Source of the DNA: a phage
Sequence record: PZ402305.1
Reading direction: 5' to 3' (one strand)
DNA length: 64,000 bases
This document shows positions 11,903 to 62,213 of the stretch, in pieces. The translations under genes and the position numbers were made by a program. The notes beneath the pieces are model-generated. The model ran no database searches and was not told where the DNA came from. It was given only the letters and a program-made list of their open reading frames with translations. How positions within the stretch are numbered: the stretch's first letter is position 1; every line of letters begins with the position of its first letter.

Positions 11903-12259
11903 ATGAAAAAATTAATCTTAGCCACATTGCTGGCTACCGTAAGCTTCACCACTTACGCTCAAAAATTTGTAGCAGTTAAAACAGATATTGGTAAAGATGT
12001 TGTGATCACAGGCAACAAGTTTTACTATACACCTGGAAATGGTGTTCTAGAAGAGTGTAAAGATGTTGAGGCATATACAGGAAAAGAAGATAACACGGAA
12101 CGTCCTTTTTATTCGATTATAGCCACTTGCAAAAATGAAATAGTAGCTATTAAACAGTATAAAGATGCCCCTGGAGGAGAATACTTATTAGTCAAGAATA
12201 TTAAGAGTGAAAAAACTGCAAAGTTTACAGTAATTATTTTAAAAGGAGAAACGTTCTAA
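11903..12259 (+). CDS. secreted protein with signal peptide
   Basis: MKKLILATLLATVSFTTYAQ signal-peptide-like N-terminus; GGAGGGAAG upstream. Confidence 0.6.
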   Translation: MKKLILATLLATVSFTTYAQKFVAVKTDIGKDVVITGNKFYYTPGNGVLEECKDVEAYTGKEDNTERPFYSIIATCKNEIVAIKQYKDAPGGEYLLVKNIKSEKTAKFTVIILKGETF

Positions 12260-13398
12260 TGAAATACACTATTTTTGGAGATGTGGCTGTTGTAAATAAG
12301 GAATATGGTGTTGAAGCTAATAAACTTCCTGCTGGAGTTTGGGTTGTCAACTGCGATCCGCACGGTAACTACTCTTTAGTGCGTGGCGAAAGTTTCTCTC
12401 TTCCGAACACTCTTTATGGGGAAACTAAAGACCGCGCCGCACATGTTATTAAAACATTTGCTCGTCGTAGTAAAGAAGGTAAAAATACTGGGGTGTTACT
12501 GACAGGCACAAAAGGCAGTGGTAAGACGATGTTAGCTAAACTAATTAGCATGTCCCTAATGTCCACAGAAGGTTTAGGTATTCCAACCATTTTGGTTACA
12601 CAGCCTTACACAGATGCTGGCTTCTTAGAATTTATGAGTAAAATTACAGATCGTGCTGTTGTTTTATTTGACGAATTTGATAAAGTGTACGCTAAGAAAG
12701 AAGATCAGGAAGCACTGTTGACCTTGTTGGATGGAACAGGAAGTGGGAATAAACTTTACATCCTAACTAAAAATAGTGGTTATATCTCGGAATATTTTGT
12801 AAACCGTCCTAGTCGTATCTATTACAGTTTCAATTACGATAAACTGTCTAGTGAAACTATGTTAGATTACTTGGATAAGAACTTGGTAAATAAAAAACAC
12901 GTAGATAACTTCCAACGTTTATGGGATGTTAGCACAGAGTTGTCTTTCGATGTTATTCAAGGTATTGTAGAAGAATTGAATTTCTATCCAAAAATGACTT
13001 TTAAAGAATGTCTTGAAATGATGGGTATTTCTTTAGGCAACGATGCTAAATGGAATGTGGCTTCTATCGTAGCTAATGGCAAAACGCTGAAGGTGAATTG
13101 GATCAATAACTGGCACGACTTCACCCCTACTAAGTTTTTGTCGGGTGCTTGTTCCCTGAACATCTATCTACAAAGTTTGAAAGATGATGAAGTGGAAGCA
13201 ATGGAAACCAACAGTTATGTTATCCTGGATGAAGATGGTGATCCACATATTGATCTATGTGCAACGGCTGATGGTCTAACTTGTGATCTGATTGAAGGTG
13301 GTAAGATTCTGGTTATGAGCACTACACCAGGAAACACTCTGCGAGTGGTGCTGGAGCCTGTAACACAACGTTCCACTACCCTGGGTAGCGTATTCTGA
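12259..13398 (+). CDS. AAA+ family ATPase
   Basis: Walker A LLTGTKGSGKTMLAK; Walker B VVLFDEFDK. Confidence 0.7.
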   Translation: MKYTIFGDVAVVNKEYGVEANKLPAGVWVVNCDPHGNYSLVRGESFSLPNTLYGETKDRAAHVIKTFARRSKEGKNTGVLLTGTKGSGKTMLAKLISMSLMSTEGLGIPTILVTQPYTDAGFLEFMSKITDRAVVLFDEFDKVYAKKEDQEALLTLLDGTGSGNKLYILTKNSGYISEYFVNRPSRIYYSFNYDKLSSETMLDYLDKNLVNKKHVDNFQRLWDVSTELSFDVIQGIVEELNFYPKMTFKECLEMMGISLGNDAKWNVASIVANGKTLKVNWINNWHDFTPTKFLSGACSLNIYLQSLKDDEVEAMETNSYVILDEDGDPHIDLCATADGLTCDLIEGGKILVMSTTPGNTLRVVLEPVTQRSTTLGSVF

Positions 13399-13404
13399 TA
13401 CAGT

Positions 13405-13437
13405 ACAAATAGCTAAACCCGCTTCGGCGGGTTTTGT
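13405..13437 (+). terminator. Rho-independent terminator
   Basis: AAACCCGCTTCGGCGGGTTTTGTT after the ATPase gene. Confidence 0.6.
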
Positions 13438-13476
13438 TATATTGATTTCAGTTTAACAGGGAGATAATTGTTAGAT

Positions 13477-14466
13477 ATGCCAGTAAAGAAGAGTATTGAA
13501 CAATATATTGAAGAGTGTCAACCTATTGCTGCTGCTAAAGGGATTGAGATTATTGGAATTGTTGAGCCGTTTACAGGACAACACACGAAAATGATCAATC
13601 GTTGTCAGTATGCTCATGAATGGAACACTACAACATTTAAAAACTTTAAAACTGGTCGTGCTGGTTGTCCTGTCTGTGCAATTGGGAAAGGATTTGGGAA
13701 AGGAGGTAAGACAGACGATCAGCACATAAAAGATTTCATTAACACAGGAAAGTTTAAACCTGGTACCATTTTCACCAATACAGGCAAACGTAAAGGGAGT
13801 CATATTCTCTGGATGGTTGAATGTCCTGTTTGTTCTCATGATGAATACGTACAAGCAGGAGTGTGTGATGGTAAATTTTACATTGCAGGGAACGATCTTA
13901 AAAAAGGGATTATCCCTTGTCGTTGTACTAGAGTTTACCGTTATACAAAAGATCAGATCACTTACAAGGTGAGAAAAGGTTTAGAAAGTAAAGGATATAT
14001 CTGGATAGAGTGGATTAGTAAACCTTCCTCAACAGGAGAGTTTAAATATGGATGTAAGGATCACGGGGAGCAAATAGGGAATGCTGACCACTTATTACAT
14101 AAGGGGCGTGGTTGTCCGAAGTGTAAAGGGCATACACAACAACAGGCATACATCAACTATATCTACGATGAACAAAATCTTCTCTGTGCTTTGAAGTTTG
14201 GTATTGCCAATAGTAGTGATCGCCGTATCAAAGAACAAAATAGTCATAATGTGTTTACTATGAAACAGAGCCAAGTGTGGCACTTCCCTACTGTGAAGCA
14301 ATGCAAAGATGCAGAAAAGCGTTGTAAGCGTGTCCTTCACACGGAAGCAGTGAGCAAATATTCTATGCCAGATGGCTACACAGAAACAGTAGAGTTATCT
14401 TGCATGGCCTCAATACAAAACATTTATAAACTTTATGGTGGAACATTACAGGAGGAAACATGTTAG
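13477..14466 (+). CDS. Cys-rich putative multi-zinc-ribbon protein
   Basis: Repeated CPVC/CPxC/GRGCPKCKG pairs; start moved to ATG at 13477. Confidence 0.6.
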   Translation: MPVKKSIEQYIEECQPIAAAKGIEIIGIVEPFTGQHTKMINRCQYAHEWNTTTFKNFKTGRAGCPVCAIGKGFGKGGKTDDQHIKDFINTGKFKPGTIFTNTGKRKGSHILWMVECPVCSHDEYVQAGVCDGKFYIAGNDLKKGIIPCRCTRVYRYTKDQITYKVRKGLESKGYIWIEWISKPSSTGEFKYGCKDHGEQIGNADHLLHKGRGCPKCKGHTQQQAYINYIYDEQNLLCALKFGIANSSDRRIKEQNSHNVFTMKQSQVWHFPTVKQCKDAEKRCKRVLHTEAVSKYSMPDGYTETVELSCMASIQNIYKLYGGTLQEETC

Positions 14467-14825
14467 TTGACGTTCAAATTATGCGCAACGAAAGAATGGA
14501 CTTCTTTGAAGCAGTAGAGAAACATCTGATCAGATGGGACTATGAATTTGTTCCTGCTGGATGTGGACCAGTAGAGCATTTAGCGGAAGACGACGATGTA
14601 TACATGATCATTCGTCAAGTGTACCAGACAGACCAGTGTGAAGAAACTCCCGAACTAATTTTGTTTGAGTGCAAAGATCTTGCAAAATATTTTGACTATG
14701 GCGGAAAAGAGGGTCATAATCTCTCCAGATACAATAAACGCCTACTTATCTTAGACTACATGCGGAACAACAAACACAAACTAATCGACGCAGACGCAGT
14801 TTATGGCTACTGGTGGATGGATTAA
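14460..14825 (+). CDS. hypothetical protein (121 aa)
   Basis: Track ORF. Confidence 0.6.
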   Translation: MLVDVQIMRNERMDFFEAVEKHLIRWDYEFVPAGCGPVEHLAEDDDVYMIIRQVYQTDQCEETPELILFECKDLAKYFDYGGKEGHNLSRYNKRLLILDYMRNNKHKLIDADAVYGYWWMD

Positions 14826-14838
14826 CAAAGGAGAAACT

Positions 14839-15018
14839 ATGGCACGTTTAGCAGATCATGAAATCTTTAAACCTATTCTGAACCACTATGATGAACTTAA
14901 AGCAGTGTTGGATTGTTATAAAGAGGATGAAGAACGCTTGGAAGTCAATCTTAAGATAGTTCTGATGAAAGCTTTTCAAGACGGGCAAGCTAAAGTCTTA
15001 GAAGGTATGAAAAAATGA
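14839..15018 (+). CDS. hypothetical protein (59 aa)
   Basis: AAGGAGAAACT then ATG. Confidence 0.5.
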   Translation: MARLADHEIFKPILNHYDELKAVLDCYKEDEERLEVNLKIVLMKAFQDGQAKVLEGMKK

Positions 15019-15557
15019 GAATAACTGACGAATATGTATTCTTCTTTTCACATAAAGATGTTTTTAGTAATTGGTATATTGCACCCTTTACAGAAACCGA
15101 ACCAGGTTACAATCAGACATTTAATTGTGTCGAACAATACATGATGTGGCGTAAAGCTTTGCTTTTTAATGACCACAACACTGCACAGGCTATTCTGACT
15201 CATAGTTTGATACGGAAAGATGAGAAGATCCAAGCTTATTACAAACGTATGGGTAGGGCAGTGTCGGATTTTGATAACAACGTATGGGAAGAGAACCGTG
15301 AGCGTATTGTTATGCGAGGTTTATGCTTGAAATATGTACAGAATCCAGATTTGTATGCAGACTTACACCTTTACCAATACAAAACGTTTGTTGAAGCAAG
15401 CCCCTACGATAAGGTTTACGGAATTGGAATGGGGATGTATGAACCAGGGGTGCTAAACCCTGCCACCTGGAAAGGGCAGAATCTTTTAGGCAAATATCAT
15501 AACAAACTGATCGAAATACTTTTCCCAGACAAAATACCGCAAAGACGATATTTGTGA
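15015..15557 (+). CDS. NADAR-domain (DUF1768/YbiA-like) protein
   Basis: FFFSHKDVFSNWY, NCVEQYMMWRKALLFND, ASPYDKVYGIG fit the NADAR fold signature. Confidence 0.7.
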   Translation: MRITDEYVFFFSHKDVFSNWYIAPFTETEPGYNQTFNCVEQYMMWRKALLFNDHNTAQAILTHSLIRKDEKIQAYYKRMGRAVSDFDNNVWEENRERIVMRGLCLKYVQNPDLYADLHLYQYKTFVEASPYDKVYGIGMGMYEPGVLNPATWKGQNLLGKYHNKLIEILFPDKIPQRRYL

Positions 15558-15604: not shown

Positions 15605-15660
15605 CAGAAATAAGGCTCCTACAACACTGTAGAGAGCCTATTATTTTGTCCTATACAAAC
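15605..15660 (+). terminator. Hairpin terminator after NADAR gene
   Basis: Nested inverted repeat AGGCTC-CTACA-ACAC-TGTAG-GAGCCT followed by T-rich tract; approximate. Confidence 0.45.
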
Positions 15661-15779
15661 ACTTATCTTTTTCAGTTTGCATCATTAGGATTCGATCTAG
15701 GTGGGTTCCTGAAGGTCTGCCAATAAGATTAAAGGTTATCTCAAATTACCCCTACTTGTTATCTCAAAAATTCCTCAAA

Positions 15780-15990
15780 TTATTTAAACTTTTTAAGAAT
15801 TTACAAAAGTGAAAGTTGAAAACCAAAATTTAAAGTTTAGGAAAATTATCTTAAAATGTTAGATACAAAACAAAACTCAAAAGTCAAGGAAAATTTTAAA
15901 AATTTTGCGCGCCCACAGTATTTAAAGTTTTTTTGCTTTTACAAAAATGAAAGTACAAAAGCAAAATTTAAAGTTTACAAAAATTTATGC
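15780..15990. repeat. A-rich direct repeats (iteron-like)
   Basis: Two ~45 bp near-copies ACAAAAGTGAAAGTTGAAAACCAAAATTTAAAGTTTAGGAAAATT and ACAAAAATGAAAGTACAAAAGCAAAATTTAAAGTTTACAAAAATT plus shorter relatives. Confidence 0.55.
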
Positions 15991-16025
15991 AGATGGGAAT
16001 GAGAAGAGTTCTCATATGGAAATGC

Positions 16026-16046
16026 AAATGATAATGATTCGCATTT
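16026..16046. promoter_or_regulatory. Fur-box-like palindrome 1
   Basis: AAATGATAATGATTCGCATTT resembles Fur consensus GATAATGATAATCATTATC. Confidence 0.4.
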
Positions 16047-16083
16047 AGGTTTATAAATGAGATTGATTCTTATTCGATAAGGT

Positions 16084-16104
16084 AAATGATAATCATTCTC
16101 ATTT
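16084..16104. promoter_or_regulatory. Fur-box-like palindrome 2
   Basis: AAATGATAATCATTCTCATTT; 12 contiguous core matches to Fur consensus. Confidence 0.45.
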
Positions 16105-16362
16105 AGAGAATGACGCGCAGGGGCGGTGTTTGTCTCGCGTTCCCGTGTCCCCTCGCCATGTAATAAGAATAACAGATCCAGCCAGGAAAGCAAGCGATTA
16201 TTTCATCTTTACATTTCTTTACAAATATATAGCGCCCAGCCTACCGGCGATCAACCTTCCAACCAGTGCCCCTGGTATGTTAGCCCCGCCTTTACGCCGT
16301 GGGGTGGCGCTTCCTCTTCTGTATGTAAAACAGTATAAGCCCGATCCCTGGGCTTGTCAAGA

Positions 16363-16629
16363 TTATTTTTTGTTTTCTTGCCAGGATAGGACACCTAACC
16401 AAAAATACATATCGCCCCGCGCCCCTGGCGGGATCTTGCTTTCCCCGCCGCCACTGCAAGCCCATAGATAACCATTTGCGAACGTATCAAAATGATCTAT
16501 CTCTTCCACCTTATGATCGCCCAGGTTGAGAACGGTTTCAACCTTTAAGCCCGTTGCGCTTGCTACCTGGTGCACCGTGCCGCCTTGCCAGCCCAATGAG
16601 TGCATAAGGTGTAATGTAGTAGTTGTCAT
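16363..16629 (-). CDS. hypothetical protein (88 aa) in GC-rich island
   Basis: Only minus-strand ORF inside the plus-strand region; local GC clearly above surrounding phage DNA. Confidence 0.4.
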   Translation of the reverse strand: MTTTTLHLMHSLGWQGGTVHQVASATGLKVETVLNLGDHKVEEIDHFDTFANGYLWACSGGGESKIPPGARGDMYFWLGVLSWQENKK

Positions 16630-16736
16630 GGTATCGCCCTTTCTTTGTTGTGCGCCCTGGTTGGCGCGGTAGAAAGATGATAGCCCTTTCCTTTATATAT
16701 AGCAAGCAAAAAGAAAATAAAAAGATTGAAAAAGTG

Positions 16737-16795
16737 GTTGACGTTCGCCAGGTGGCGGCATAATATTTACCACGTAGGGCGGCAATGGTGCCGCT
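16737..16795 (+). promoter_or_regulatory. Early-type promoter + 5' hairpin module
   Basis: TTGACG-N17-TAATAT then CACGTAGGGCGGCAATGGTGCCGCTC. Confidence 0.6.
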
Positions 16796-27163: not shown

Positions 27164-27171
27164 GATTATAC

Positions 27172-27200
27172 AAGGGGCGCACCAAGCGCCCTTTCTTTTT
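27172..27200 (+). terminator. Rho-independent terminator ending the small-gene array
   Basis: GGGGCGCACCAAGCGCCCTTTCTTTTTG; same hairpin as at 22086. Confidence 0.6.
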
Positions 27201-28273
27201 GCCCGAATAATGTTGATAGATTCCGCCTATGGAAAACCGACACAGAACAAAACTGAATAAATAGCGGTATCGAGCTAATCAACCATTAAACGAATAACCA
27301 TACCTCCCAGGGTAACAGGCTGTTAGAGAGCCATTTAGAGCGGTTAAAATCGATCAACAACCAACAAAAAACCATCAAAAACACCCTTTTACCTCCTTTC
27401 TAGTGCAATGATAACCATTATCATCTATCCATGTTTATCTATGCAATATAAGTGCATAACTATAATGTTGATAATAGTTCGCAACAACTAACTAACCAAC
27501 AACCTAAAACAATAAGCAAACTAATCATAATCAAAGGAATAATAGCAAGATGATTGATAACGACAAACAATCAAACCATGATGAATACTAAGCAAGATAA
27601 CGATAACACGACAAAACAACCAACTAACGAACAATAACAAACGAAACCATTAAAATAATAACTATTAGCAAAATAGTGCCTGAATGAAATCATTACAAAA
27701 CGAATCATTCACAGGATCATCATTAGCACGCTATGCCGGACACATAGCGAGCTAATAATAAGCCAACTACACCCCAACAATCATAACCATCGGTGATGGT
27801 TATTTCTTGTTACTGCGTAGCTTGCAATAATTGCAAGCGTAATACGCTTACACTTATTGCGCTGGCTTATTATTAGCATTATATGTAATTACCAAGATCA
27901 TAACATTAGCGCAATAACAATAATCATTGTGGTAATTACAAGATGAAATAATCGCTATCGCTCAAAGATCATTAGCAAGATGAATAATTGCACGTAGCAA
28001 CATGAGCGAATAGCGACAGGTTGCATAGTGTGCACATAGATGTACACGTAGTGTATAAACATACAGGAAAATAAAGGCTAATCTTTTGGGGGCGAATACT
28101 ATCGCGTAGCGATATGTTGAGCACTAAGAGAAGAGATAAACCTTAATCATGGGGGCGTAAATATCCGCAGGATTGCCAACGGCGATCCGGTAGGATGTTG
28201 AGCATCTTCTCTTAAACGTAAATAAAATCAGAAAATTCTTGATTTATTTTAGTTTTTATGTTAATAAACGTTT

Positions 28274-28301
28274 AAATAATAATCATTCTCATATGAATAA
28301 T
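28274..28301. promoter_or_regulatory. Fur-box-like palindrome 3
   Basis: AATAATAATCATTCTCATATGAATAAT shares ATAATCATTCTCAT core with 16084 site. Confidence 0.4.
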
Positions 28302-28450
28302 AGTCTGCTTGTCATGAGCGGGATCAGTTGACAATGTTCCGTCATATGATGAAGTTGCCAAACCATTGATAAATAAGTGTTTGTGTGATTTATAATCAAG
28401 TGGCCCACCTTGTCGCTATGTTGGCATGAGCCTTGCATAAGTCATTGAAT

Positions 28451-28480
28451 ACGAATGATAATTATTCTCATTCGCATGAT
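28451..28480. promoter_or_regulatory. Fur-box-like palindrome 4
   Basis: ACGAATGATAATTATTCTCATTCGCATGAT, near-perfect inverted repeat. Confidence 0.4.
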
Positions 28481-28813
28481 ATTTGAGAATTGTCGCTGCG
28501 TGGACCTGACGGCCCGAAAATTCGCGTTAAGCACTTCTTACGTATGCGCCATGATTTTTGCCATATGATATTGATTCTATTAGATATTCTTGCCATGATT
28601 GCCATGAAACAGGGTGTCCCGAAATAATCTCTCCCCGTAGATATTTTGGGTTACTTTTTATACAAGAGTGGGGTGTCAAAAATAATCGGTATATATGGGA
28701 TAATTGATAGGAATCCCCTATGATAATTCGATTGTAATTCCCTGAGATTGATCGTATGATGTTGGTGATTGATGATTGCCATGAAAGATGGCTAACAATG
28801 AGAGGAGATTATC

Positions 28814-38405: not shown

Positions 38406-38431
38406 AATACAGCAATGGTTTAGGAGTGGTT

Positions 38432-39103
38432 ATGAAAAAGTTTGTTGTTTACAGTCGTCTTTCTAAACAGAAAAAAGGTGAGGCACAATATGGTATGGAG
38501 AGCCAAGAGAATGATATCCGTTACTTCTTAGACTCTGTGCCTGATGCGGAAGTTATTGGTCAATTTTCTGAATACTATTCGGGTAAGGGCGATTGGAAGC
38601 AACGTAAGGAACTGGTTAAAGCGGTTGAAATGTGTAAAGCTACCGGAGCAACTTTATTGGTAGCTAAAGTTGACCGCTTGGGTCGTAATAACGCCTCCGT
38701 AGCAACTCTTCTAGAAATGATTGATGTTAAGATAGCCATCATGCCAGACGCAGATAAAATGGTTATACAGCTTCTGTCTGTTCTGGCTGAACAAGAAGTT
38801 AGAGGTATTGCTGATCGTATTAAAAAGGGTCTTGCTGTAGCAAAAAGCAAAGGTGTTTTATTAGGCAGTGCCAATCCTAAAACTGCCGCTGCACGTAGAA
38901 AAGGAAAAATGGAATACAACTCTGTTAAAGCAGACGCTTTTGCAGAGACATTCCGTGAACGCTTGGAGATCCTTAGAGATTTAAATACACCTTACAAAAC
39001 TATTGCTGAAAAATTCAATAGTAAGAAAATAGCAACAGCACGTGGTGGTAAATGGGATGCTAAAACTGTTTCTCGTTTGTGTGCCAGACTGAACATTAAA
39101 TAG
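38432..39103 (+). CDS. Serine recombinase (resolvase/invertase family)
   Basis: VYSRLSK, TLLVAKVDRLGRNNASVATLLEMI, LLSVLAEQEVRGIADRIKKGLAVAKSKG align with Hin/Gin catalytic domain; C-terminal GGKWDAKTVSRL; start ATG after AGGAG. Confidence 0.75.
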   Translation: MKKFVVYSRLSKQKKGEAQYGMESQENDIRYFLDSVPDAEVIGQFSEYYSGKGDWKQRKELVKAVEMCKATGATLLVAKVDRLGRNNASVATLLEMIDVKIAIMPDADKMVIQLLSVLAEQEVRGIADRIKKGLAVAKSKGVLLGSANPKTAAARRKGKMEYNSVKADAFAETFRERLEILRDLNTPYKTIAEKFNSKKIATARGGKWDAKTVSRLCARLNIK

Positions 39104-58674: not shown

Positions 58675-58935
58675 TTACTCCGCAATTTGAGCCATGAGAT
58701 CACGCAGTTCGGTAAAACCGCCTACGTATGTTACCTCCCCGTTCACTTCGGACAGAATTTGTGGAAATGTGCGTGGAGGAACTCCGGTAAGATCAACAAC
58801 TGTTTTAGTCATTGATTCTAAATCATAGTCTTGATCAAGACTTAAATATTCAAACTGTTTATTGCGCATGGTTAATAGTTGTTTTGACATTTCACAAAAT
58901 TGACAGTTAGGTTTACCAAAAATTACAAATTCCAT
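58675..58935 (-). CDS. Glutaredoxin/thioredoxin-like protein (NrdC-like)
   Basis: N-terminal FGKPNCQFCEMSK (CxxC active site), C-terminal GGFTELRDL; near nrdB. Confidence 0.7.
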   Translation of the reverse strand: MEFVIFGKPNCQFCEMSKQLLTMRNKQFEYLSLDQDYDLESMTKTVVDLTGVPPRTFPQILSEVNGEVTYVGGFTELRDLMAQIAE

Positions 58936-59777
58936 TACCTCTCCTTATTAAGTAATACTGCTAAAGACTGTTCAATACCTTTATTTAAATCTGATTTTGT
59001 AAGATAGTGACTGGTTACTAGTTGTGACTTCACCGGACGTGCTGCTGGAGCATTATAGGTTGAAGCTGATACCGCCGATATCTTAACAGGTTCTGGCATC
59101 TGTGTCAAGATCTTTTCCGCAAACTCCGCCCAAGAAATAAGATGGCTTCCTGCAAAATGGTAAGTCTTAACAGACCTTGACCAACCTGTTTTTAATACTT
59201 CAAAAATAGCTTCTGCTAAATCTGGAGCATATGTTGGACAAGAGAACTGATCAGCAACAATAATAAAATCACGTTGTCCATCATTATAGCGAGACAACAT
59301 GGTTTTTAGAAAGTTATTTCCAAATTCGCTATATACCGAGGCTGTTCGAATAATATATGCATTTGGGTTAACTCCTCGCACCATTTTTTCACCAAGTTCT
59401 TTCGTATACCCATAATTGTTTATTGGGTTAGGTGTAGTATCTTCAAAAATAGGATGAGAATAATTAAAAATATAGTCTGTAGAAATATGCACAAAATCAA
59501 TTTTAAGTTTGCTGCACACTGCCGCAATATTTGCAGGTCCATACGCATTAACAGCCAAAGCAGTAGCAAAATCATGTTCTGCTTTATCTACAGCCGTATA
59601 AGCGGCGCAATTAATAACACCATCTACATAATCTTCAATAATAGCGTTTCGCACAGCTTCAAAATTTGTAATATCTACACGTTCTTTAGGATAAATTAAA
59701 GATACATTTGAAGGAGCCACTTTACGTAAAGCTTGTCCCAGTTGTCCATTACCGCCCAATACCAGATATGTTAGCAT
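58935..59777 (-). CDS. rmlD: dTDP-4-dehydrorhamnose reductase
   Basis: N-terminal LVLGGNGQLG Rossmann motif; last gene of rml cluster. Confidence 0.8.
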   Translation of the reverse strand: MLTYLVLGGNGQLGQALRKVAPSNVSLIYPKERVDITNFEAVRNAIIEDYVDGVINCAAYTAVDKAEHDFATALAVNAYGPANIAAVCSKLKIDFVHISTDYIFNYSHPIFEDTTPNPINNYGYTKELGEKMVRGVNPNAYIIRTASVYSEFGNNFLKTMLSRYNDGQRDFIIVADQFSCPTYAPDLAEAIFEVLKTGWSRSVKTYHFAGSHLISWAEFAEKILTQMPEPVKISAVSASTYNAPAARPVKSQLVTSHYLTKSDLNKGIEQSLAVLLNKER

Positions 59778-60337
59778 ACACCCTCGCTACGTAACTGTTG
59801 AAAAGATTTAGCCATTGCATCTTTTGTTGATAGAATAGGTTTAAAACCTTCGTCAAAAATCATATCGAAGCCCCAATCGATCCCTATATCAGGATCATCC
59901 CAACGTAAACTTTGTTCACTAGAAGGGTCGTATGGAGTTGTGCATTTGTATTCAAAGATAGCATCCATACTCAAAACTATAAAACCATGAGCCAAACCAG
60001 GCGGAAGCCAAAACTGCGTATGGTGTCGTGCACGAAGAACAACACCGTCCCAAGCACCGTAAGTTGGACTATCTTTACGTAAATCTACAGCGAAATCCAA
60101 TACTTCCCCACTTACACAACGAACTAGCTTACCTTGCGGGTTATTTGTTTGAAAGTGCATTCCTCGCAAAACACCGAAGTTTGATTTAGACATGTTATCT
60201 TGAACGAAAGTTTGTCTACCAATAATATCTTCGTATTTTTGTTCATTATATGTTTCTAGAAAGAAACCACGATCATCTTTATAAACGTCTGGTTTGATAA
60301 TTACCGCACCTTCAATTTTTGTTTTTTCTACTTTCAT
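59771..60337 (-). CDS. rmlC: dTDP-4-dehydrorhamnose 3,5-epimerase
   Basis: RGMHFQ and cupin-type motifs; start moved to ATG overlapping rmlA stop. Confidence 0.8.
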
Positions 60338-61212
60338 TTTCTCTCCGCTAATTTGAGTAGGTATTGCCCGTACTCTGTTTTCTTCAGTGAGTTTCCATGA
60401 TACACCAAAGTCTCTAAAGAAATCCACCCTTTTTTGAAAGCAATTTCTTCCAGGCACGCAATCTTCAATCCTTGACAGTTCTCAATAGTCTGCACGAATT
60501 GACCAGCTTCCATCAGACTGGCGTGTGTTCCTGTGTCAAGCCAAGTAAATCCTCGTCCGAGAACTTCCACTTGTAACTTCCTGTCTTCTAGGTAGCTGCG
60601 ATTGATATCAGTGATCTCCAGTTCTCCACGCGCGGAAGGGGTTACTTCTAATGCACGTTGAATAACAGAGTTATCATAGAAATACAAACCTGTGACAGCA
60701 TAATCTGATTTAGGATTTTCAGGTTTCTCTTCAATAGAAATAGCTTGACGATTACTCCCAAATTCAACCACACCGAATCGTTCAGGATCTTTCACCAAAT
60801 ACCCGAAAATACAAGCTCCGCCCCAAACATCTACCATCTCACTGGCGTTAATCAGTAGTTTACCAAAGCTTTGTCCGAAGAATAGGTTGTCACCTAAAAT
60901 AAGAGCAACAGAGTCTTCTCCGATAAAATCTTTACCTATGATGAAAGCTTCCGCAAGACCTCGTGGCTCGGATTGGATTGCGTAAGTGAGTTTTATCCCA
61001 AACATAGATCCATCTCCGAGAAGATACTCAAAGTCTTCCTGATCGCCTGGTGTGGTGATTATTAAAATATCCTTAATGTCAGCCAACATCAATACCGATA
61101 AAGGGTAGTAGATCATGGGTTTGTCATACACAGGGAGTAATTGCTTGCTCACACTGCGTGTTACTGGATGAAGGCGGGTTCCACTTCCTCCCGCCAAAAT
61201 AATACCTTTCAT
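60334..61212 (-). CDS. rmlA: Glucose-1-phosphate thymidylyltransferase
   Basis: [18 protein letters not shown] ... [16 protein letters not shown]. Confidence 0.85.
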
Positions 61213-61220
61213 AACCCTCC

Positions 61221-62213
61221 TTAAATTTTCTCACTCCACCATTGAGGGTTGTTTAAGTACCATTCAATCGTTGAGTAGAGATCTTGTTCAAATGTAGAGT
61301 TTGCACTCCAACCCAGTTCAGACTCTATTTTAGAAGGATTGATTTCATAACGCAAGTCATGTCCTTTACGATCTTCAACAAAAGTTATCAAGTTGGAAGA
61401 AGGGTAGGTTCCTGCCTCTGGATGTACAGCATCCATGTAGTCACAAACCATATAGATGATCTCCATATTGGTTTTGGGATTACGTGTTCCAACATTATAC
61501 GTTTGACCTGGTTCTCCACCTGTTGCCACTTGAAGAATAGCTCGCGCATGATCCTCAACAAAAAGCCAGTCTCGCACCTGATCGCCTTTACCATACACCG
61601 GAATCTCTTTATTCGTCAAGATACTTGTGATGATTTTTGGGATCAGCTTTTCTGGATGTTGATAAGGCCCAAAGTTATTGGAGCAGTTGGTTATCACAAC
61701 AGGCAAATCGTAGGTACGGTGCCAAGCTTTCACAAGATGGTCAGATGCTGCCTTAGACGCGCTGTACGGGCTTGAAGGGGCATAAGCTGTCTCTTCAGTA
61801 AAGGGAACGCCAGAGTCTGCCATATCGCCGTACACTTCGTCTGTGGAGACGTGTACGAACATCTTCAGTTTATTTTTTGGGAGGAGCCTTGCAGCTTCCA
61901 ATAAATTGTATGTACCAATAATATTGGAGTCGATGAAAACTCGTGGATTCTTGATAGAATTATCCACATGACTTTCTGCCGCTAAGTGAATGATGAAGTC
62001 AGGATTGCACTCTACTACTAAACTTTTGACCTGGGTTTCGTTTGCCAAATCTGTTATGCTTAGTTTAACGTGAGTGATATCGCCTACATTCTCAATGTCT
62101 GCTGCATAGCCCATCTTATCAACGACAAAAACTTCGTTATTGGGATCTTGACAAAGAGAGCGCACCACGGCACTCCCAATAAAACCAAGACCACCTGTTA
62201 CCAGATAGCGCAT
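61221..62213 (-). CDS. rmlB: dTDP-glucose 4,6-dehydratase
   Basis: [35 protein letters not shown] short-chain dehydratase motifs. Confidence 0.85.

Follow-up and report, generated by a model that had tools for sequence, protein, structure and literature searches.

A stand-alone NADAR protein of a phAPEC8-like coliphage is an orthologue of AdfN-Bas60 and a probable eraser of DarT1-type guanine ADP-ribosylation

The BASEL phages Bas60, Bas61 and Bas62 carry a NADAR protein, AdfN-Bas60, which neutralized DarT1 in uninfected E. coli when expressed ectopically (Johannesman et al., Nat Commun 2025, PMC11825919). It also brought the phages RB69, T5 and Bas25 back to full titre on DarTG1 cells, and DarTG2 was not countered (PMC11825919). 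The evidence for this protein comes from ectopic expression only, a deletion in the native phage not having been reported (PMC11825919). AdfN-T4 (gp30.3 of T-even phages) is likewise a phage orphan NADAR countering DarTG1 by removal of ADP-ribose from DNA, but it acts only in the T-even infection context, on which the Bas60 type does not depend. In vitro, every NADAR subfamily assayed removes ADP-ribose from guanine (G-ADPr) (PMC11125620; PMC12945103). E. coli YbiA and T4 gp30.3 both exhibit this activity in vitro, yet they gave no rescue from DarT1 in uninfected cells (PMC11125620), and thus in vitro G-ADPr activity is no guarantee of cellular protection. YbiA (PDB 2B3W) is a housekeeping, LexA-regulated chromosomal enzyme described as a riboflavin-intermediate N-glycosidase. 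Other members of the superfamily include the DarT1-associated antitoxin DarG1 (E. coli C7; G. lovleyi, PDB 8BAT) and the Phytophthora nicotianae protein PnNADAR (PDB 8BAU), which belongs to the 'NADAR proper' group and hydrolyzes guanine-ADPr.

We analyzed a stretch of phage DNA of 64,000 nucleotides (sequence record PZ402305.1), which is referred to here as the window. The 4 kb surrounding its NADAR gene share 99.3% identity with Escherichia phage vB_EcoM-P3322 and 98% with tuntematon, confirming a phage-borne copy; the source is a phAPEC8-like virulent coliphage of the genus Phapecoctavirus, subfamily Stephanstirmvirinae. Several near-identical genomes have been deposited as 'Campylobacter phage' or 'Acinetobacter phage', names which look like host mislabelling. 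The NADAR gene (adfN-like) occupies positions 15015..15557 on the + strand, from ATG to TGA, and encodes 180 amino acids, exactly as the sequence-only reading had placed it. That reading had also called a NADAR domain, and the call proved right by sequence, profile and fold: the protein matches Pfam NADAR PF08719 (DUF1768) with 124.2 bits (E=7.8e-36; gathering cut-off 35.1 bits), and the alignment spans positions 3-154 of the 163 in the profile. Further matches are to PHROG 1017 (E=5e-52), a family of unknown function, and to TIGR02464 ('riboflavin biosynthesis intermediates N-glycosidase'; 113.1 bits, NCBIfam cut-off 73.7), a model which covers the whole NADAR/COG3236 domain, so that this match does not separate subfamilies. 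A protein identical to the window NADAR is encoded by the Phapecoctavirus 536P1.

The AlphaFold2 model of the protein (mean pLDDT 95.8, pTM 0.89, from an input of 69 homologues) has the α+β fold of the superfamily, and only two significant Foldseek matches were found in the PDB. The best was the complex of PnNADAR with ADP-ribose (8BAU), and the second-best the E. coli YbiA structure. In PnNADAR, ADP-ribose is contacted by E43, K50, R79, W89, R93, E125, D130 and W133 (Schuller et al., PMC11543638; numbering of the 8BAU chain is +2 relative to that of the paper). Guanine de-ADP-ribosylation requires equivalents of E43 and K50, plus an Asp in DarG1 (Schuller et al., PMC11543638). In the phmmer alignment to 8BAU, the contact residues correspond to E40, K47, R81, W91, R95, E127, D132 and Y135 of the window protein, seven of the eight being the same and Y135 replacing W133. 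The codons of the catalytic set lie at 15132-15134 (E40), 15153-15155 (K47) and 15393-15395 (E127) on the + strand. E40, K47, W91, E127 and D132 are invariant in the alignment of 69 homologues, and R81 is retained in 67 of them. At position 135, 56 of the sequences have Trp and the other 13 have Tyr; the Bas60 AdfN, the active protein, also has Tyr there. PnNADAR further differs from the phage protein in being eukaryotic and in having extra N-terminal and internal extensions. The catalytic Glu and Lys are essential in AdfN-T4 and in the E. coli C7 DarG1, and the window protein retains both. From these conserved residues, the window protein is predicted to hydrolyze guanine-ADPr.

The closest described relative is AdfN-Bas60 itself. 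Bas60-62 (PaulScherrer, EmilieFrey and JohannJBalmer) are all members of Justusliebigvirus, a genus of the same subfamily as the window phage. The Bas60 gene was identified through the GenBank record, where bas60_0111 (QXV83846.1) is the only NADAR match; the sole NADAR gene of Bas61 is bas61_0107. The window NADAR is 59% identical to the bas60_0111 product over its full length (E=1e-69), after which the closest relatives come from other phages and bacteria, with identities of at most 48%. Both genera have a common slot with an AAA ATPase, an endonuclease-like gene, NADAR, a long intergenic region and a conserved 88-aa minus-strand ORF. Like AdfN-Bas60 (and phi92 gp223 and bas61_0107), the window protein is a stand-alone single domain of about 180 aa with the same catalytic residues and Tyr at the PnNADAR W133 position, and it is phage-encoded without an adjoining cognate toxin. 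It differs in 41% of residues, in its C-terminal tail and in the hairpin at residues 27-35, where six residues are deleted. In Phapecoctavirus, unlike Justusliebigvirus, NADAR is separated from the endonuclease-like gene by two extra ORFs, of 121 and 59 aa. Across the two genera, the flanking ATPase retains 64% identity, so that NADAR has diverged about as much as its neighbor, which fits vertical descent from a common ancestor; by this comparison, the divergence looks vertical. The window allele type occurs in 71 phage records at ≥80% identity and the Bas61 type in 56. The presence of both types in at least 127 phage records suggests that the gene was already in their common ancestor. At least 80% of the protein was covered in 711 of the 719 matching phage records.

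Several comparisons bear on the NADAR subfamily. With the family profile, PnNADAR scored 124 bits and YbiA 62 bits, and DarG1 was not matched. With the single window protein as a phmmer query against PDB sequences, PnNADAR was found at E=4e-15 and YbiA was not found. BLASTP aligned only 96 residues to YbiA, with 29% identity, and YbiA is without the loop at residues 138-150; with T4 gp30.3, BLASTP gave no significant similarity (E=4.3). T4-type phage NADARs carry His in place of E127, which the window protein retains. The catalytic Asp specific to DarG1 (C7 D171, two residues before the conserved Glu) is replaced by Phe in the window protein. The profile scores, E127 and this Phe place the protein in the stand-alone 'NADAR proper' group and not in the DarG1, T4-phage or YbiA groups. 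The placement was made from the profile scores to PDB entries and the published tree, leaving aside the sigma-70-linked E. coli NADAR and AdfN-Bas32; Johannesman et al. placed the Bas60 type among the non-YbiA bacterial NADARs (PMC11825919).

Each of the other assignments was considered separately. A DarG1 or BC4488-type antitoxin was rejected, as both the catalytic Asp and the N-terminal basic extension are missing, and no ART or DarT gene is present in the neighborhood of the NADAR gene; DarG1 nevertheless belongs to the same superfamily, keeps the Glu/Lys pair and shares the predicted chemistry and the predicted target (guanine-N2-ADPr in DNA). The T4 type (gp30.3/AdfN-T4) was rejected on the retained E127 and the lack of detectable pairwise similarity, and the YbiA type on the profile scores and the absence of rib genes among the window ORFs scanned. 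The NCBIfam model NF053876 for the anti-phage defence NADAR DS32_2 gave 17.4 bits against a cut-off of 240. The 121-bit match to PADLOC PDC-M42C is explained by the common NADAR domain, the gene lying in a phage genome and not in a defence island.

We consider it probable, with a chance of roughly three in four, that this gene encodes a stand-alone NADAR which erases DarT1-type guanine ADP-ribosylation and so protects phage DNA from DarTG1. The sequence-only reading had named it as an anti-DarT candidate, a suggestion which is strengthened by the orthology and synteny with AdfN-Bas60 and by the conserved Glu/Lys pair. The NADAR protein would be produced early, from the last gene of an early gene string of the host RNA polymerase type. 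It would bind ADP-ribose on guanine N2 in DNA and cut the N-glycosidic bond, with E40, K47 and E127 as the predicted catalytic set and with the pyrophosphate and distal ribose probably held by R81, W91, R95, D132 and Y135. Continuous erasure of DarT1-type marks would keep phage DNA replicable in DarTG1 cells, the NADAR serving as an orphan antitoxin which should not require toxin binding. An allele that is 59% identical presumably shares the activity of AdfN-Bas60, early expression is likewise presumed, and DarT1-type modification is the supposed pressure which retains the gene.

Three further explanations and one variant were weighed against this one. Other ADPr conjugates or soluble ADPr-derived immune signals may be the main targets, the anti-DarT1 effect being one facet or a side activity. 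The candidates are cytidine-ADPr (C-ADPr), RNA guanosine-ADPr and the cADPR-type signals of TIR/Thoeris-like systems. A context argument holds that phage NADARs mostly process low-molecular-weight ADPr derivatives (Iyer et al. 2022, PMC9503650). Moreover, C-ADPr on DNA and RNA is also a substrate of the 'NADAR proper' and YbiA families, though not of DarG1 or the T4 NADAR (PMC12945103), and the window protein groups with NADAR proper. However, the literature found documents neither a C-ADPr-writing defence nor a NADAR-sensitive small signal, and the anti-DarTG1 effect of the orthologue is strong, with full titre restored (PMC11825919). This explanation, which overlaps with erasure of DarT1 marks and does not exclude it, appears unlikely. 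We regard as rather unlikely the variant in which the Phapecoctavirus allele has diverged to follow a different target, either as a broader eraser of C-ADPr or RNA-ADPr or as a destroyer of an immune signal, countering a defence besides or instead of DarTG1. As part of that variant, the NADAR might cooperate with the two coupled, Phapecoctavirus-specific small ORFs.

A YbiA-like housekeeping N-glycosidase destroying reactive early intermediates of riboflavin biosynthesis is suggested by the TIGR02464 score (113 bits vs 73.7), by YbiA being the second-best fold match, and by the labels of relatives ('GTP cyclohydrolase II', 'N-glycosidase' and 'ribA/ribD-fused uncharacterized protein'). This role is nevertheless very improbable: the protein alone finds PnNADAR and not YbiA among PDB sequences, BLASTP similarity to YbiA is short and low, and the family profile favors PnNADAR by 62 bits. 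In addition, riboflavin genes are absent nearby, the Bas60 type falls among the non-YbiA NADARs (PMC11825919), and riboflavin damage control is of no evident use to a virulent phage. Finally, a self-regulatory reversal of ADP-ribosylation by the phage's own NAD-using enzymes, for which the SIR2-family protein encoded in the window (45933-46733) and the expression of NADAR genes along with phage ARTs in T4-like phages (PMC9503650) might speak, is the least probable, because the SIR2 gene lies at a distance of 30 kb, on the other strand and without an operon link, NADARs cut N-glycosidic base linkages and not protein linkages in all the assays consulted (PMC11125620; PMC12945103), and the orthologue is active without any phage factor (PMC11825919).

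The NADAR gene is the last of a tightly packed, co-directional string on the + strand, which as listed starts with the AAA ATPase (12259-13398). A hairpin (13415-13434) separates the ATPase from the endonuclease-like gene (13468-14466, +), which is the first after that hairpin. The product of the latter has a CapR homology domain (Pfam CapR E=4.7e-22; PHROG 681, endonuclease) with a treble-clef zinc finger and a weakly MUG113/GIY-YIG-like C-terminus. Its length is 332 aa here, 394 aa in phAPEC8, 325 aa in Bas61 and 467 aa in Bas60, and this variability suggests that the gene is mobile or rapidly remodelled. Two small ORFs of unknown function follow, encoding 121 aa (14460..14825, +; PHROG 24465, no Pfam match) and 59 aa (14839..15018, +; PHROG 22330). 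The 59-aa ORF occurs in Phapecoctavirus, where it is annotated in tuntematon and phAPEC8, and both ORFs are missing at this position in Bas60/61. The ATG of the NADAR gene shares the sequence ATGA with the stop of the 59-aa ORF, which suggests translational coupling. A sigma-70-like promoter match (TTGACT-17-CATAAT, 10/12) lies inside the 121-aa ORF at 14692..14720 on the + strand and could perhaps drive the 59-aa ORF and NADAR, in a region where promoter-like sites are no more frequent than in shuffled sequence.

An intrinsic terminator follows at 15614..15649 on the + strand, 57 nt past NADAR, as a 10-bp bulged hairpin and then UAUUAUUUUGU. The hairpin has a dG of -22.7 kcal/mol (z = -5.3) and is located where the phAPEC8 record has its ARNold terminator; a simple terminator scan missed it because the stem is bulged. 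The terminator is followed by about 800 nt without a conserved ORF. The earlier description of the gene as standing at the end of an operon thus agrees with its last place in the string and with this hairpin and U-tract. The ten neighbors scanned comprise the AAA ATPase, the CapR/endonuclease-like protein and small unknowns, and the Pfam, PHROGs and PADLOC scans of these ten revealed nothing NAD- or ADPr-related and no ART domain.

By sequence, the window NADAR is a further member of a class published in 2024-2025, and since both mechanism and class have already been published, the finding raises no new question. With this gene, the published AdfN-Bas60 class reaches beyond Justusliebigvirus into its sister genus Phapecoctavirus. 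Its practical value is in annotation and in the prediction that phAPEC8-like phages resist DarTG1-type DNA ADP-ribosylation, several of these Phapecoctavirus being candidate therapeutic coliphages. The gene, which is mostly a 'hypothetical protein' or mislabelled 'GTP cyclohydrolase II' in Phapecoctavirus records, can now be given a likely function. Across records, the labels of NADAR orthologues are 'hypothetical protein', 'GTP cyclohydrolase II', 'DNA methyltransferase', 'swarming motility protein' and 'YbiA-like N-glycosidase'; the labels 'GTP cyclohydrolase II' and 'YbiA-like N-glycosidase' are based on the YbiA-like riboflavin reading.

Two less usual features lie just downstream of the gene: Fur-box-like palindromes arranged in an array, and a block of GC-rich non-coding DNA kept across two phage subfamilies. 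Between the terminator and the palindrome array, positions 15776-15985 contain AT-rich direct repeats (24-27% GC), with a 72-nt unit present twice (82% identity) and a 29-nt unit three times. This region is possibly origin-like or a promoter cluster. The 'repeat_region' annotated in tuntematon is about 250 nt further downstream, at the position of the palindrome array. The palindrome AATGAkAATnATTmTCATT is present in seven copies in the window, where chance would give 0.45. Four copies stand in tandem with 29-nt spacing at 15998-16103, just past the NADAR terminator, and the last of them (16082-16100) agrees with the E. coli Fur-box consensus in 16 of its 19 positions. The other three (27407-27425, 28275-28293 and 28454-28472) are in or adjoining a second ORF-poor stretch (27164-28813), which comprises about 1.65 kb without an ORF of at least 51 aa. 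Several genera of the Vequintavirinae keep the palindrome in their homologous intergenic region, and to judge from its sequence, it may serve as an operator, either for Fur or for a phage regulator. A literature search found no paper describing it.

The block from ~16085 to 16760 has 47-54% GC, compared to 24-40% around it, and is GC-rich from about position 16100. It is ~97% identical between Phapecoctavirus and Justusliebigvirus, whereas the flanking proteins are only ~60% identical. Its first ~290 nt (~16085-16375) have no agreed ORF: a + strand ORF is annotated there in phAPEC8 but not in tuntematon, and in comparison with Bas61, the frame is interrupted by 1-nt indels. This part shares 70-76% DNA identity with Seunavirus, Mydovirus, Certrevirus, Henunavirus and, partly, Vequintavirus (at least five genera of the Vequintavirinae), where it is always unannotated DNA and never adjoins a NADAR. 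For the conserved GC-rich core, RNAalifold predicted a pair of stems with a U-rich tail. This prediction includes a single compensatory pair, and the sequences resemble one another too closely for it to prove a structure. No match at threshold came from the Rfam and tRNA scans, which covered the window and the intergenic region downstream, the sole sub-threshold match being FtrA (25.8 bits vs 134). The identity of the block with the pseudo-ToxI of phage phiTE was rejected, as pseudo-ToxI is located at 106.7 kb of phiTE and the match at 39.6 kb. A host origin of the GC-rich island was also discarded, since there was no megablast match in 5,426 E. coli genomes. From its conservation pattern, ~16085-16375 may be a candidate small RNA or a regulatory (promoter/operator) module, independent of NADAR.

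The remaining part of the block includes the 88-aa ORF of unknown function (16363-16629, - strand; PHROG 19316). It is 98% identical between the two genera, compared to 59% for NADAR and 64% for the ATPase, which suggests either recent exchange of the segment or a constraint of unusual strength. The region of this ORF had no match in the same 5,426 E. coli genomes.

Three other features of the window were noted. The SIR2-family protein (45933-46733, - strand; Pfam E=2e-19) is a further NAD-dependent enzyme of a virulent phage, unlinked to the NADAR gene. A serine recombinase (38426-39103; Resolvase N-terminal domain, E=5e-18) is encoded in the early region, though the phage is regarded as strictly virulent. 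RmlD-, RmlA- and RmlB-like genes of the dTDP-rhamnose pathway are located at 58935-62213 on the - strand, with a host surface sugar, or DNA or protein glycosylation, as possibilities for their role.
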